A stretch of 64,000 nucleotides of DNA from Escherichia coli (GCF_050920415.1 NZ_CP169309.1), one strand, 5' to 3'. Positions 4,218-54,319 are shown, numbered from the stretch's first letter. Translations and numbers: made by a program. The notes: generated by a model from the letters alone, not told the origin.

Positions 4218-5785
4218 GATGAGCGCTCCACAGCATCATCTAACAGTCGCATTGGTTCTGGTATTCTTCGCCAGTGGCGACCATCGTGCTCGGCATTGAT
4301 GACCGGTTTAGAACTTTGCGTTAAAGGCAGCGGCATGCCCCATTGTTCTGGGGCAAGCAGGCGCATCTGCACCAGCTCGGCACTGATTTGATCATCTTCA
4401 AACCAGACCATACGGTTTGAGAAAATGTCGCCAGTCGGCAATGGGAAAATATGATTCAACGCGGTATCCAGATCGTTAATCCGACAGAATGAGAGAAACA
4501 GCACCAGCCGATTACCGCCAATGGTCATGATATCGCCGGTACGGTTAGGGCGACACAGCGTCAGGGCTTGCTCAACGCGGATACCCGGTACCGGACGTAG
4601 GGCAACCAGAACGCCTTTACCATGTGCAGGCAAGAGAGGGTTATTCATCATGTTGTTAACGGCATTACAGAACACATCCCACTTCTGGAAACCACGCAGT
4701 TTGAGCGGCTGGGTCATTGACAGCAAGGTAGTGATATCTTCCGGCACATAGCGACTAAACTTCTGCCCTTGCACGCTTTCGATCATCGTCAGACAGCGGG
4801 AGAGTGGCGCATTCCACGGGATAACCATATTTGCACCGCAGGCCAATAATAAACGTTCATCGGTGGCGCGCAGGCTTGCAGTATTTTCCCGTACGAGGAT
4901 TTTCATCGCACTACCGCGCTGGCGACGCAGAGTATGAATGCTGCGGGCCAGTGGCTCGATTTGCGCATTTTGCTGTAAAGAAAAGACCACCGTCGCCGCC
5001 TGAGCTGTACGGGCTTCATTGAACAGAACTTCGTTATTGTTGAACAGTTGCCAGTGTTCCGATAGGGGCGGTGCACCTTCCAGTACAGCAACATTACTCA
5101 GAATGCGTTTTTCGTCGCTGCGTGGTTGGATCTCCGCCTCTTCGCTTTGAACTAATGTCCAGATACCATTTTGTTGCTGAACGCTAAGCTGCTGACGGGC
5201 GCTGACCCCTTTTTCGTTGCACCAGAAGGCAATATCCAGCAAATGTTGGTCGCCCTGAAAACGCAAACTGGCAAGACCAAAAAGTGAACGGTATTCCTCA
5301 AGCAACAATGAAAATTGTTTATCGTTATTATTTCCGGGATTAATTACCAAAAGCGAACAATGGTTTAACCTGCTCCATTTATTCATTTTATCCAACCATG
5401 AGCGAAGCCGCTCGGCAGGAATGTTTTGCCATGCGTTATTTGCGCAAACAAGAATAAAAAGGTAATTATTGGGATCAATAGAACACTGCAAATCACGGGC
5501 CAAATAGTATAGACCTTTTTCATGATTTAGCATTGAAAATAATTTTATTTTTTCCGGCCCTTGAGAATCATCTAATTGAAAGATTTTCGCCGGATCGCTG
5601 TCCATGCTAATGACCGCGACGTGTGCGGTTTCAGCCTGGGATGCAATTGTTTGATTCGCCAGACTGATAGCATCTTCATGGCGATCGACGTTAAACCACC
5701 AGACGCCGCCTGCTGGCATATGTCGCAGCTCATCCCATAATGATGAGATACCGATAGAGAATACAGGGTCCACAATGTCCCTCAT
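4214..5785 (-). CDS. bcsE: Cellulose biosynthesis protein BcsE (YhjS), c-di-GMP-binding
   Basis: 523 aa; overlaps the bcsF start by 4 nt; divergent from bcsR. Confidence 0.9.
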
Positions 5786-6056
5786 GTCATCATTTTGTCT
5801 GATTATCAGTTTACTAGCGAAAGCTAAGAAATAAACCTACCATTGAAATTAAAACTTATCAGATTTAGCATGTGAATCAATTTAGCAGGTCACAAGACGT
5901 GTGATTTTAGTCTTTTCGTTTTTAACTTTTTTTGTTGCGTAACGGAAAGTCAAAAAGTGAGCAAATTCCCGTCTCGCCGTAAACAATAAACCGGCGAAAT
6001 GCTCACGGTTAGAATTGTCTCATGAACGGTGCGGTTATTTCATAGGGATCAAGCAA
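5786..6056. promoter_or_regulatory. Divergent promoter region between bcsEFG and bcsRQABZC
   Basis: 271-bp AT-rich intergenic region between divergent operon starts. Confidence 0.5.
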
Positions 6057-6245
6057 ATGAATAACAATGAACCAGATACTCTGCCTGATCCCGCGATAGG
6101 CTATATCTTCCAGAATGATATTTTGGCGTTAAAGCAGGCATTTTCACTGCCTGATATTGATTATGCCGATATTTCCCAACGCGAACAGTTGGCCGCGGCA
6201 TTAAAACGCTGGCCGTTGCTGGCAGAGTTTGCGCAACAAAAGTAG
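6057..6245 (+). CDS. bcsR: Cellulose biosynthesis regulator BcsR (YhjR)
   Basis: 62 aa from ATG 6057, MNNNEPDTLPDPAIGYIFQNDILALKQAF...; the listed ORF 6015-6245 is an upstream extension. Confidence 0.85.
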   Translation: MNNNEPDTLPDPAIGYIFQNDILALKQAFSLPDIDYADISQREQLAAALKRWPLLAEFAQQK

Positions 6246-6256
6246 GGGATTGGTGA

Positions 6257-7009
6257 ATGGCCGTACTGGGATTGCAGGGGGTGCGGGGAGGCGTGGGGAC
6301 AACAACCATCACTGCCGCATTAGCCTGGTCATTACAAATGTTGGGAGAAAATGTCCTGGTGGTCGATGCCTGCCCGGACAATTTGTTGCGCCTGTCATTT
6401 AACGTTGATTTTACCCACCGTCAGGGCTGGGCCAGAGCCATGCTGGACGGTCAGGACTGGCGTGACGCCGGGTTGCGCTATACCTCGCAGCTCGATTTGC
6501 TGCCTTTTGGTCAGTTATCCATTGAAGAACAAGAAAATCCTCAGCACTGGCAAACCCGGTTGAGCGATATTTGCTCCGGCTTACAGCAACTCAAAGCTAG
6601 CGGGCGTTACCAGTGGATTTTGATCGACTTACCGCGTGATGCCTCACAGATAACCCACCAGTTGCTGAGTTTGTGCGATCACTCGCTGGCAATCGTCAAT
6701 GTGGATGCCAACTGCCATATCCGGCTGCATCAGCAGGCGCTGCCGGATGGCGCGCATATTTTGATTAATGACTTCCGTATCGGCAGTCAGGTTCAGGACG
6801 ATATTTACCAGCTTTGGTTGCAAAGCCAGCGCCGATTACTGCCAATGCTCATTCATCGTGATGAAGCGATGGCTCAATGCCTGGCGGCTAAGCAACCAGT
6901 CGGTGAATACCGCAGTGATGCGCTGGCGGCTGAAGAGATACTGACGCTGGCTAACTGGTGCCTGTTGAACTATTCCGGGCTGAAAACGCCAGTCGGGAGT
7001 GCATCATGA
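6257..7009 (+). CDS. bcsQ: Cellulose synthase-associated ATPase BcsQ (ParA/MinD-like), intact
   Basis: 250 aa; P-loop-like GVRGGVGTTT. Codon 6 is TTG (Leu); K-12 lab strains carry a stop here as I recall. Confidence 0.9.
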   Translation: MAVLGLQGVRGGVGTTTITAALAWSLQMLGENVLVVDACPDNLLRLSFNVDFTHRQGWARAMLDGQDWRDAGLRYTSQLDLLPFGQLSIEEQENPQHWQTRLSDICSGLQQLKASGRYQWILIDLPRDASQITHQLLSLCDHSLAIVNVDANCHIRLHQQALPDGAHILINDFRIGSQVQDDIYQLWLQSQRRLLPMLIHRDEAMAQCLAAKQPVGEYRSDALAAEEILTLANWCLLNYSGLKTPVGSAS

Positions 7010-48459: not shown

Positions 48460-49683
48460 TTATGGGGTTATATTCTGGTAATGATTTGATAAGCGAATTC
48501 TTTTGCCAGTTGGTATTTCTATTTCCACCCCATAATTTATAGTTTTTTCATCAGGTAGCGATCTCTTTAAATAAGGTGCGTATGACATTTTTTTAGGATG
48601 AAACGTATCGTGTTGAAATATTTCGAATTGATATTCAGACATTTCTGCCCATGTTTGAATTTTATTGTATCGGGAGAGTGTCGTAAAGGCTTTAACTTGC
48701 TTATAACATTGTTTTTGGAATTCTTGCTGATATTTTATTATGTCGTTGTATGAAAGATTATTTACCCTGGTTTCTAATAATTCTATTATTGTCGAAGCAA
48801 TTTCCGCTTTTGCTCTTAAAGAGTTGTCATTAATGGTTAATAATGTTGAAAATAAACCATTGATTTGTTTGTCAACATATTGTTCATCTTTATGTAATTT
48901 TGTGATAGGGTTTTCCTTATGTGAAAAAATAGTATCAAATAAATTTGCGTCAGTGAAGTTTACATTAAGTAGATCTTCGAAATAAAACCTTGACAAGGTT
49001 AGAACGAACCCGGACAGGTCCTGTCCTGTCATATTGAAATCAATAAAGTTGGTTCCAGCAAAGACTTTCATCCTGTTTTCATTTTTACTGTGCTCAATAT
49101 ACAACCTTGTCATTTTTTGGTACAAGCGTTGAATATCTTTTATATCAGTTGGTAGATCAGTTCGTTGCCCAGAAAAATTTTTATTTTCGGAAGAAACGGT
49201 TTGGACACTGAATCTTACTGGTATTCCCTCTTCTACGAGAATTTTAGTTATGATTGGCTTATTGGGCTTAGGATTAAAGACAACAATGATTTTAGATTCA
49301 GAGTTTTTATTCTTTTCGTATCTAATGTTATTAATCTGATTAAGTATTGATTGTGTCTGTTGCGTAAGTGGTGTCGAACTTATCGTTTCAATGTTATTAA
49401 TAAGTTTTACAAGTTGAGCCACAACTTTTGAGTAGTCTGCATTTGTATATGTGGTGTTCGTGTGGCACGCATTAATTTGTTGGAGTTGTTGTTTCGCTAA
49501 ATCAAATTGTTCAGCGTTATATCCTTCTTCAGACAATGAAAAATTAACGGGTTGCTGTTCTTCCTGATTATCACAAGGCCACATCGGTGTGTTTGGTGTT
49601 TTAACATTGTCGGTATCTGTTGTGCGGTTATAAATATCGCCGTGATATGTGTTTATCATACCTGGGGTAAAGTCAATTGACAT
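48460..49683 (-). CDS. AT-rich hypothetical protein, 407 aa, possibly an uninterrupted yhiS ortholog
   Basis: Low-GC ORF rich in N, K and Q; segment [41 protein letters not shown] resembles pentapeptide-type repeats. Sits between slp and the ars region, where K-12 has an IS5-disrupted yhiS. Confidence 0.6.
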
Positions 49684-50263: not shown

Positions 50264-51277
50264 TTAAAATAGCATTTGAGTCAAATAGCCCATCAAGATA
50301 GCCATACCTAAGATAACCGTCAGGAATGCAACTATCATCGGTATTCTGAACATTGATTTAAGTAATATCACTTCCGTCAGGCTTGCTCCGGCACTGCCGA
50401 TGATTAATGCCATTAATGCTCCCGGACCCATTCCTTTTGTCATCAGAACAGATGCCAGAGGGATAACCGCCTCTGCCCGGATATACAGCGGGATTCCGAC
50501 AACGGCGCTCAATGGGATGGCGAAGGGATTATCTGCCCCTGCATGAGCGGCAATCCACTCTGAGGGAATAAAGCCATAAATAAAAGAGCCTATTAATACC
50601 CCTAACAAAAGATATGGCAGTACATCTTTAAACTGTTGCAACGCATCTTTGGTGGCTAGTTTTATGGGATTAATACTTACCACAGCTTTGGTACTGCAAC
50701 AGTTTACTACAGGTTTCTCAATGGCTTTAGCCGCTGGACTACAGCAACTCACTTTTATTGGCGTATAAGTCGTCCCCGGCGAAGTTTTGGCTGGAGAGCA
50801 ACAATTTGCTGATGAGCTTTTACTGGCAATGATATGACGTTCAAATCTCAGAGAATCCAGGATAATACTGGCAAGTACGGAGACGCCGGCGGCGATAATC
50901 GCGTACAACAAGGTAACTTTCCAACCAAAGGTCACCCACATTAACCCGACGATAATGGGATTAAGTAACGGTGAAACAAATAAAAAAGTGAGAGTCGGAC
51001 CAAACCCGGCTTTCGCTGACAACAATCCACGTAGCATGGGTATTGTCGAGCAACTACAGAACGGGGTAACGGCTCCCAACAGAGCAGCCAGGAGATAGCC
51101 TCTCCCTTTTCTGGCCCCCATCATCTGCTGGATTTTATGGTCTGGCACCTTTTGTCTTATCAGGCTGACACCGGCACTAATCACTATAAACAGCAAAGAA
51201 AGCTCGACGGCGAGAAACACAAACATCTCTGCGGCATCTTGCAGCATCGCAAGCCAACTACTCATAAGTAACCTCAT
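50264..51277 (-). CDS. Cysteine-rich polytopic permease of the DUF318/ArsP-like type (putative metalloid or organoarsenical efflux permease)
   Basis: 337 aa with multiple TM segments; TPFCSCSTIP motif; central hydrophilic loop with three vicinal Cys pairs (NCCS, SCCS, NCCS). Divergent from an ArsR-family regulator. Confidence 0.7.
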   Translation of the reverse strand: MRLLMSSWLAMLQDAAEMFVFLAVELSLLFIVISAGVSLIRQKVPDHKIQQMMGARKGRGYLLAALLGAVTPFCSCSTIPMLRGLLSAKAGFGPTLTFLFVSPLLNPIIVGLMWVTFGWKVTLLYAIIAAGVSVLASIILDSLRFERHIIASKSSSANCCSPAKTSPGTTYTPIKVSCCSPAAKAIEKPVVNCCSTKAVVSINPIKLATKDALQQFKDVLPYLLLGVLIGSFIYGFIPSEWIAAHAGADNPFAIPLSAVVGIPLYIRAEAVIPLASVLMTKGMGPGALMALIIGSAGASLTEVILLKSMFRIPMIVAFLTVILGMAILMGYLTQMLF

Positions 51278-51289
51278 TGAATAAAACTA

Positions 51290-51311
51290 TATTTCCAGAA
51301 TAATCGAAATA
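51290..51311. promoter_or_regulatory. Candidate operator, palindrome 1, in the permease/regulator divergent intergenic region
   Basis: TATTTC-N10-GAAATA dyad (tatttccagaataatcgaaata). Confidence 0.4.
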
Positions 51312-51324
51312 AAGTTCAGATCAA

Positions 51325-51350
51325 GATATTTCTGGTATTATCGAAATATC
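51325..51350. promoter_or_regulatory. Candidate operator, palindrome 2
   Basis: GATATTTC-N10-GAAATATC with perfect 8-bp inverted arms, 37 bp centre-to-centre from palindrome 1 and about 25 bp upstream of the regulator ATG. Confidence 0.45.
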
Positions 51351-51372
51351 AACCAGACAGAGGGGGTGACAC

Positions 51373-51693
51373 ATGCAATTGGAAGAGGTCGCTAAGGCAC
51401 TGAAAGAGTTAGGTCATCCGACCCGTTTGTTCATATTTAAGCATCTGGTCAAAGCGGGGGAACAAGGTTTGCCGGTCGGTGAGTTGCAAAAGCAGCTTGG
51501 GATACCCGGCTCTACACTCAGTCACCATATTTCAGCACTGGTATCGGTAGGGTTGGTCAAACAAAACCGTGAGAGTCGGACGCTGATGTGTGTTTCGCAA
51601 TACGCAATGCTGGAAGCGATAATTGAATTCTTACGTGAGGAGTGCTGCGTAAACAGCAAAACAGATAGCGAAGGAGCCACGAAGAACAAATAA
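51373..51693 (+). CDS. ArsR/SmtB-family winged-helix transcriptional regulator (accessory, second ArsR-type gene)
   Basis: 106 aa; LGHPTRLFIFKHL...PGSTLSHHISALVSVGLV is a typical ArsR HTH; C-terminal cysteines (LMCVSQ...EECCVN) rather than the helix-3 CVC site; AGGGGG SD before the ATG. Confidence 0.75.
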   Translation: MQLEEVAKALKELGHPTRLFIFKHLVKAGEQGLPVGELQKQLGIPGSTLSHHISALVSVGLVKQNRESRTLMCVSQYAMLEAIIEFLREECCVNSKTDSEGATKNK

Positions 51694-51708
51694 GGGGGCA
51701 TATCCCCC
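51694..51708. terminator. Compact bidirectional terminator between the accessory regulator and arsC (convergent)
   Basis: gggggcatatccccc hairpin flanked by T-rich sequence on both strands in a 20-bp convergent gap. Confidence 0.45.
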
Positions 51709-51713
51709 TATAG

Positions 51714-53495: not shown

Positions 53496-53849
53496 TTAAC
53501 TACAAATATTCTTACTGTCTGCGGAACAATTTTGTCTGGCGAGGTTACGGACAATCACCTGAACCTTTTCCTGTTCGCATCGCCAGGCCTGCTCAATAAT
53601 TTTCGCCGCCCATGCTGGAATATGCGGCGATAAACGGTAATGAACCCACTTTCCTTGCTTGCGGTCCAGCAATAGCCCACTTTCACGCAGTAATGCCAGA
53701 TGGCGGGAGATCTTGGGCTGCGACTGATCGAGGGCAGTGCACAGATCGCAGACGCATAACTCTCCCAGTTCGCTGAGCAGTAAAACGATGCCCAGACGGG
53801 TTTCATCGGCAAGAATTTTGAAGAGTTGGATGGGTAACAGAAATGACAT
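53496..53849 (-). CDS. arsR: Arsenical resistance operon repressor ArsR
   Basis: 117 aa with HTH and ELCVCDLC metalloid-binding motif. Confidence 0.93.
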   Translation of the reverse strand: MSFLLPIQLFKILADETRLGIVLLLSELGELCVCDLCTALDQSQPKISRHLALLRESGLLLDRKQGKWVHYRLSPHIPAWAAKIIEQAWRCEQEKVQVIVRNLARQNCSADSKNICS

Positions 53850-54000
53850 ATTGCGCTCCTGATTGTTGCACTTAGTGTCTCTCTTCGAAGCGGATAAGTC
53901 AAAAACATATATGTTTTAACGAATGCATAAGTGCAAAAGTAAGTAATAGGTGTGAATTTTGAGTTGGGTATTCATTTGAAAGGAAGGCTGAATCAGGATG

Positions 54001-54083
54001 TAAAAAAACCGACTTTGCGTCGGTTTTTTACTCTTCAGCCAGAGTTGGTGGCTCTGGCTGGAGTGAGAATGCCCACATCTAAC
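54001..54083 (-). ncRNA. agrB: AgrB small RNA (antisense regulator of dinQ)
   Basis: Repeat unit with terminator hairpin aaaaaaaccgactttgcgtcggtttttt at 54002-54030; segment complementary to the dinQ 5' region; spacing to arsR matches K-12 as I recall. Ends are approximate. Confidence 0.5.
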
Positions 54084-54234
54084 GGTTCAATACTATTAGC
54101 CAGTGGCTAACATTGCAAGCGTTAGCGATTTCTTCAGCTGGCGAAGGGACAGTTTGCTATACATGGTGGTGAAAGAGGATTGATATACTTTCATCGGGTC
54201 GCTGCCGTACCAAGCCTTGTCCGAATCCGGACGT

Positions 54235-54319
54235 AAAAAAACCGACTTACGTCGGTTTTTTTACTCTTCAGCCCTGAGTTGGTGGCCCTGGCTGGAGTGA
54301 GATAGCCATCATCTAACAC
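54235..54319 (-). ncRNA. agrA: AgrA small RNA (paralog of agrB)
   Basis: Second copy of the same unit, with hairpin at 54234-54262. Ends are approximate. Confidence 0.5.

Follow-up and report, generated by a model that had tools for sequence, protein, structure and literature searches.

The window analysed here is a 64-kb stretch of Escherichia coli DNA, and the region of interest is its gor-arsRBC-yhiS-slp segment, read in the reverse direction. Beside arsC, it contains two divergently oriented genes that are absent from this position in K-12, as the initial annotation of the locus had suggested: a permease gene on the minus strand (50264-51265) and, on the plus strand, a gene for an ArsR/SmtB-family repressor of 106 aa (51373-51693). 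The same annotation had described the former as a 337-aa ORF on the minus strand (50264-51277) with a TPFCSCSTIP motif and three CC pairs, and these features are present as described, with the start probably shifted to 51265. The ORF of 337 aa is the mechanical one; homologues begin at M5, its fifth codon, and the resulting length of 333 aa is also that of the RefSeq annotation of the permease in a 99.4%-identical strain. Because a GAGG lies 7 nt 5' of the ATG at 51265, this position is probably the true start.

The Pfam family ArsP_1 (PF03773), which had been expected to match the permease, does so over its full length, with 180.2 bits and an E-value of 6.6e-53 (permease residues 13-334 aligned to positions 3-293 of the 294 in the model). 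Judged by this match, the permease is a member of ArsP_1, the TC 2.A.119 family in the broad sense. Among the curated NCBIfam models, the best-scoring one is that of the SO_0444 Cu/Zn exporter (NF033936), with 115.8 bits for a cut-off of 300, and the SaoE model (NF040736) gives 90.1 bits for a cut-off of 325. Every curated subfamily cut-off is failed, and membership in SO_0444 and in SaoE was rejected on these scores; seven other members of the permease subfamily, from other genera, likewise have SO_0444 as their top NCBIfam model and fall below its cut-off, at 95-132 bits. YraQ, a K-12 paralogue, is 23% identical to the permease. A profile search of PDB sequences with the permease gave no match even at an E-value of 1, and a literature search by the RefSeq accessions of the permease and the regulator gave none either.

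The TPFCSCSTIP motif (codons 51038-51067, minus strand; residues 71-80) contains the proposed thiolate substrate site, C74 and C76. Both cysteines, and TPFCSCS as a whole, are invariant in 80 of 80 homologues, and the F and first C of TPFCSC are invariant down to approximately 30% identity. The motif had initially been read as the signature of ArsP organoarsenical permeases and of the DUF318 family. The family assignment stands, but since SO_0444 and SaoE carry the CSC motif too, it is a marker of the family and not of organoarsenical specificity. The second conspicuous element is a hydrophilic, Cys/Ser/Pro/Lys-rich central loop (codons 50654-50839, minus strand), which sequence and predicted model both suggest is disordered and which holds three CC pairs (NCCS, SCCS and NCCS; Cys 159/160, 178/179 and 193/194). 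Across homologues, this loop varies between 32 and 109 aa and contains 1-10 cysteines (median 7) and a median of 0 histidines; that of the E. coli permease has no histidine.

ArsP family proteins have been described as two four-helix repeats with a variable central loop. The AlphaFold2 model of the permease, built from 46 sequences, is confident (pLDDT 87.4, pTM 0.83) except in the central loop, where the pLDDT drops to ~50 over model residues 150-199, and consists of two repeats of helices around this disordered segment. In each repeat, a long and a short helix are followed by a broken helix pair, then by another kinked helix, and the repeat closes with a long helix. The broken pairs are formed by helices 52-66 and 71-83 around TPFC, with the Cys-Ser-Cys motif at the break, and by helices 249-260 and 264-276 around IPLY-IRAE. 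If these pairs are re-entrant hairpins, then one side of the membrane would have the Lys/Arg-rich first loop together with the central and the last short loops, and the acidic loop after helix 5 would be on the opposite side. We infer from this arrangement that the Cys-rich loop is probably cytoplasmic and that the CSC hairpin enters from the cytoplasmic side, an orientation derived from the secondary structure of the model and from charge counts rather than from coordinates. The predicted model resembles ArsB (10tp), INDY and Pho90 of the DASS/ion-transporter superfamily, a likeness that comes from the model only, as the identity to the permease is 8-11%; moreover, the permease has 333 aa and the ArsB/DASS carriers have 430-540 aa. 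It should be noted that the authors of TCDB place ArsP in the TOG superfamily and not with the ArsB/DASS carriers.

The regulator was matched by the NCBIfam model HTH_metalloreg (NF033788; 61.7 bits, cut-off 55), by HTH_20 (E 2.9e-14) and by HTH_5 (E 1.6e-6), and is, by these matches, an ArsR/SmtB winged-helix protein, in agreement with the initial assignment. Its only cysteines are C73 (codon 51589-51591) and the vicinal pair C91-C92 (codons 51643-51648), and all three are invariant in 60 of 60 regulator orthologues; many Vibrio orthologues have CC-x4-C. The best PDB match is AfArsR of Acidithiobacillus ferrooxidans (6j05, E 2.7e-10; query residues 6-96), which has a type 2 As(III) site formed by Cys95, Cys96 and Cys102. 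In this alignment, EECCVNSK of the regulator falls on ENCCHGTR of AfArsR, so that C91-C92 correspond to Cys95-Cys96, in register at the end of the dimerisation helix, and the C-terminal CC pointed out in the initial annotation has a counterpart of known structure. The E. coli regulator differs from AfArsR in that its tail contains no cysteine after C92, and hence no Cys102 equivalent; it has C73 in the beta-hairpin instead. A type 1 site as in the R773 and K-12 chromosomal ArsR proteins (Cys32/Cys34/Cys37) was rejected, because no cysteine of the regulator precedes residue 73. The canonical ArsR of the window (53496-53849) does carry ELCVCDLC, as had been reported, and is 29% identical to the regulator over 62 aa. 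The sulfite/persulfide sensor BigR (NF040642) was likewise rejected as a family, with 38.3 bits for a cut-off of 155.

The 107-bp intergenic region contains two copies of a 22-bp palindrome, TATTTC-N10-GAAATA, recognisable both as a repeat and as palindromes. The first, putative operator 1 (TATTTCCAGAATAATCGAAATA, 51290-51311), overlaps a -10-like hexamer of the regulator promoter, and the second, putative operator 2 (TATTTCTGGTATTATCGAAATA, 51327-51348), overlaps a promoter-like site of the permease. The 64-kb window contains no others, against an expectation of 0.17 sites. An exact copy of the palindrome precedes the permease gene at 65 of 98 loci, and the palindrome is found also at loci lacking an adjacent regulator and in a 40%-identical relative. 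It is conserved across phyla, with lineage-specific variants of the arms: TATTAC/GTAATA in alphaproteobacteria and TAATTC/GAATTA in the Halomonas-Acinetobacter group. Together, this is strong comparative evidence for the prediction that the palindrome is the binding site of the repressor. The sigma-70-like hexamers that overlap the operators are weak matches to the consensus and no commoner than chance, and the positions given for the two promoters are putative. A GC-rich hairpin resembling a bidirectional terminator (51693-51709) lies between the convergent regulator and arsC genes. Since this hairpin separates the regulator from arsC, the pair is, by its predicted signals, a transcription unit of its own, apart from arsRBC. 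The possibility that the intergenic region harbours a riboswitch or another RNA element was rejected, as Rfam finds only two AgrB copies further along.

To place the pair in a wider context, we scanned one genome per species, which gave 80 loci. A regulator orthologue (94-179 bits) adjoins the permease at 60 of them, usually divergent and 40-260 bp away, and the cluster analysis of neighbours found no other gene consistently linked to the pair. By this comparison, the pair is a conserved, self-contained module. The distant relatives P0132, P0137 and P0165 are on short contigs whose gene context is little informative, and P0137 keeps both regulator and operator.

The informative recurrent neighbours of the pair are ars genes only, which flank it in at least five unrelated layouts. 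In E. coli and E. fergusonii, arsRBC is followed by the pair, and in Citrobacter gillenii the pair follows arsDABC. The Salmonella locus is a mobile arsRDABC cluster with arsH directly downstream of the regulator (ArsH, 405 bits), and in Buttiauxella arsC, arsB and arsH are found on the far side of the permease. Endozoicomonas has arsR-acr3-arsD-arsA-permease-regulator on one strand. In Shewanella, the pair lies inside arr/ars islands together with arrAB, arsD, arsC, a canonical arsR and GAPDH-arsJ; these islands also contain, partnered with an ArsE-type thioredoxin, a second ArsP_1 paralogue. This paralogue, which may be the "classical" ArsP, is 30% identical, and the copy compared does not have the long Cys-rich loop. 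The linkage is restricted to a minority of loci: ars genes occur within 6 kb at six of the 80 species loci and at none of the other 74, and most marine loci are not in an ars context. In the same cluster analysis, no recurrence among neighbours was seen for cop, czc, mer or cad genes, nor for genes encoding persulfide dioxygenase or rhodanese. Copies of the pair are also present in about 780-786 plasmid records, most at 60-80% protein identity, from carriers that come largely from pigs and poultry. In two plasmid loci that were examined, IS26 lies beside the regulator and ars genes are missing. The proposal that a second metalloid or organoarsenical module sits beside arsRBC is supported independently by the recurrent ars linkage in other genera, and its substrate is one that we infer.

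Within E. coli, 2219 of 5426 complete genomes have the intact pair on the chromosome, at 95-99% identity, and 3166 (58%) have a K-12-type arsC-yhiS spacer of 628 bp, the two groups together making up nearly all genomes. The initial annotation had left open whether the pair is an accessory insertion or has been deleted from K-12, and the evidence favours deletion. In K-12 itself, a blastn search of the arsC-yhiS spacer revealed a surviving stretch of the 3' end of the regulator gene (51600-51661; 80.6% identity over 62 bp) and a weaker relic that maps to the permease gene (50598-50658; 67% over 61 bp). By eye, REP-like elements can also be seen in the spacer. The order in E. fergusonii, which has no acid fitness island, is arsC-regulator-permease-treF. 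Because of these relics and the shared gene order, the pair next to arsC is, by comparison of the sequences, the ancestral state in Escherichia, and K-12 has lost it by deletion. A recent insertion was rejected on the same grounds and also because the G+C content, ~0.46, is intermediate and not foreign-looking. Shigella copies are truncated, and in some strains the pair is interrupted by IS elements.

Comparison with characterised systems provides indications of what the module may recognise. SpArsR of Shewanella putrefaciens 200 is an MAs(III)-selective ArsR with a two-cysteine site, Cys101/Cys102, that responds to methylarsenite and not to arsenite (PMC11868830, PMC13236881). The Shewanella orthologue of the regulator in our set, P0272, has 105 aa, shares 57% identity with that of E. 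coli, and is encoded inside an arsenic island; its Cys pair is at 101/102, which is the numbering of SpArsR (PMC13236881). SpArsR and the E. coli regulator share a vicinal Cys pair aligned with Cys95/96 of AfArsR and the lack of a Cys102 equivalent. The Cys numbering and the gene context are a strong hint, not proof, that the regulator is orthologous to SpArsR. The family goes beyond the two-ligand model of SpArsR, as one more cysteine, C73 in E. coli and C83 in the 105-aa Shewanella form, is invariant too. With regard to the permease, ArsP of Campylobacter jejuni (TC 2.A.119) is an efflux permease for MAs(III) and trivalent roxarsone. Both proteins belong to ArsP_1, and members of the permease subfamily are also found beside ars genes in several genera; a homologue from Campylobacter gracilis is only 29% identical to the permease. 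The E. coli permease differs from CjArsP in that it and a dedicated repressor form a transcription unit by themselves. SO_0444 of Shewanella oneidensis, which functions in Cu/Zn efflux, shares the Pfam family and the CSC motif with the permease, but is controlled by a MerR-type ZntR, and no Cu or Zn genes are linked to the E. coli pair.

Taken together, these data make it somewhat probable that the pair is a divergent module that senses and extrudes a thiol-seeking trivalent metalloid. The likeliest ligands are trivalent arsenicals, with methylarsenite or aromatic As(III) compounds as the foremost candidates. Consistent with this view, the permease loop is rich in cysteine and poor in histidine across homologues; counting against it are the 74 of 80 species loci without ars neighbours, the lack of ars genes at the plasmid loci and the fact that SO_0444 is the best curated model, although far below its cut-off. 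Selectivity for organoarsenicals within the arsenical reading can be put forward only tentatively, and we judge it to be somewhat less probable than its opposite. In the mechanism that we propose, a dimeric repressor would occupy both operators and keep both promoters off. A metalloid would bind C91 and C92, possibly together with C73 of the partner subunit, and release the repressor, and the permease would then export the metalloid, which would pass from the loop thiols to the Cys-Ser-Cys site. The permease would probably operate by an elevator mechanism, as ArsB and the DASS transporters do. Wherever ars genes adjoin the pair, ArsB or Acr3 is also encoded, and for this reason the module probably adds specificity, for organoarsenicals, and does not duplicate arsenite export. 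The MAs(III) sensitivity of K-12, a strain without the pair, is a further point for the arsenical reading. In its most far-reaching form, the pair would be a widely mobile organoarsenical determinant, for methylarsenite or reduced roxarsone, on about 40% of E. coli chromosomes and on hundreds of livestock-associated Enterobacteriaceae plasmids, overlooked owing to its loss from K-12 and to the bare annotation "permease". Its sensor site would be made of C91/C92 and C73 of the partner subunit, and its ArsB/DASS-like elevator carrier would be fed by a disordered cytoplasmic poly-thiol loop handing the metalloid to the hairpin tip with the Cys-Ser-Cys motif; we regard this combination as doubtful. 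A site composed of the C91/C92 pair and the beta-hairpin C73 of the partner subunit would be of a type not yet described.

Other readings of the pair have to be weighed against trivalent arsenicals. The three invariant cysteines would be as suitable for As(III), Cd, Hg or Pb as for MAs(III), and it is established chemistry that tri-thiolate sites bind Cd, Pb and Hg well. The permease might accordingly be an exporter of soft-metal cations (Cd, Zn, Cu(I), Hg, Pb or Ag) like SO_0444, governed by a repressor with an S3 thiolate site like that of CmtR (Cd, Pb). This reading, which we consider unlikely, draws on the top rank of the SO_0444 model for the permease and every subfamily member tested, on the CSC motif common to SO_0444 and SaoE, on the lack of ars genes at most loci and at the two plasmid loci, and on the origin of the plasmid carriers, largely pigs and poultry, animals that are fed Cu and Zn. 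Nevertheless, scores of 95-132 bits are far from the SO_0444 cut-off, the control of SO_0444 is exerted by a MerR-type protein and not by an ArsR protein, the permease loop has a median of no histidines, and it is ars genes that recur among the neighbours and not cop, czc, mer or cad. In addition, the nearest solved relative of the regulator, AfArsR, is an arsenite sensor.

A redox or reactive-sulfur unit like BigR/SqrR, in which a disulfide or polysulfide bridge would link the cysteines and the cargo of the permease would be a sulfur compound, has in our estimation a very slim chance of being correct. The regulator does give weak BigR matches (38 bits with NCBIfam, 34 bits in the PDB), and a 43%-identical relative lies between peroxiredoxin/thioredoxin-like and sulfite/nitrite reductase genes. 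However, the BigR score is far below its cut-off, the BigR cysteines are at positions other than the conserved ones of the regulator, the neighbours contain no recurrent persulfide dioxygenase or rhodanese, and the ars linkage would be left unexplained. There is also a slim chance that the permease is an importer, for example one that, like MerT and MerC, brings in a thiophilic species to be processed inside the cell, or that the pair is a decaying, functionless remnant in E. coli. The direction of transport is not readable from sequence, but the two characterised ArsP_1-family members considered, CjArsP and SO_0444, are exporters, and efflux is what one would expect under a repressor that a toxic ligand releases. 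The loss of the pair from 58% of the E. coli genomes, its truncation in Shigella and the IS interruptions would suit a remnant, yet 2219 genomes retain both genes intact, at 95-99% identity, and the functional residues and the operators are invariant.

In summary, the pair is an uncharacterised system of a kind already known, an ArsR-type repressor paired with an exporter of the ArsP family. It goes unnamed in current resistance-gene annotation, and the transporter is called "permease". The points of most experimental worth are the third invariant cysteine, the poly-Cys loop and the wide spread on plasmids; the third cysteine and the variable loop raise testable questions on how ArsR sensors and ArsP-family carriers choose their ligands. 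The arsenic biology of E. coli has been built on K-12 and its ars-deleted derivatives, all of which lack the pair. Should the module export methylarsenite or aromatic arsenicals, a resistance trait that K-12 cannot show would be present in about two in five E. coli strains, and many plasmids from pigs and poultry in E. coli, Salmonella and Klebsiella would carry the same trait.

Copies of the permease-regulator pair are carried by about 786 records in PLSDB, the majority at 60-80% protein identity; three of the top "plasmid" matches are records of chromosome size (4.8-4.9 Mb). The plasmids, which are mostly conjugative, are hosted by E. coli, Salmonella and Klebsiella, and many of the records originate from chickens, pigs and ducks. 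In both of the plasmid loci that we examined (pair at 6582-8047 in L083 and 6581-8047 in L084), IS26 adjoins the regulator gene and a ProQ/FinO gene adjoins the permease gene, and neither of these two loci contains ars genes. Some E. coli strains contain, at another chromosomal site, a second version of the pair that is 74% identical (5599-6999 in loci L003 and L090-L092); a DUF2776 gene flanks it on one side and an Oxidored_FMN gene on the other, and two operators are present at this version.

Disrupted copies of the pair exist as well. Three AFDB50 permease entries (A0AB36PK37, A0A0I0R8U0 and A0A376M2I0), from Shigella flexneri, Shigella sonnei and, in one case, E. coli, are 96% identical and shortened to 223-257 aa, a length that suggests pseudogenisation of the permease in these entries. 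In the strain nearest to the window (NZ_CP169399.1, 99.9%), the permease gene is split by an IS2-family element, and in NZ_CP182203.1 ISKpn26 is inserted inside the pair.

As to the neighbouring genes in the window, the 407-aa ORF is yhiS (48460-49683, minus strand), which is intact here, whereas the K-12 copy is an annotated pseudogene split by IS5. The gene is strongly AT-rich (G+C ~0.33), and its product matched no NCBIfam family. The interval between arsR and gor contains two copies of an AgrB-family antisense sRNA (54000-54082 and 54233-54316, both on the minus strand; 90 and 83.6 bits with Rfam), adjoined by the dinQ toxin gene that is annotated in related strains.

In other genera, the gene located just past the regulator in 13 Vibrio loci (4309-4905 in L082, and 12 others) encodes a ~198-aa protein that resembles sigma factors of the sigma-70/ECF type and has a cysteine-rich C-terminus (QGCC...CKGC). 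In two Shewanella arsenic islands (7120-8553 in L034; 770-2197 in L099), a gene for a eukaryote-type glutathione synthase directly follows the permease gene, an adjacency from which the exported species may be a glutathione conjugate. The island at L099 additionally encodes a second ArsP_1 paralogue (4857-6103), which is 30% identical to the E. coli permease, has a loop without cysteines, and is followed by a gene for a thioredoxin-like protein of the MTH895/ArsE family. The poly-cysteine loop that characterizes the permease subfamily studied here might substitute for such a thioredoxin-like partner.
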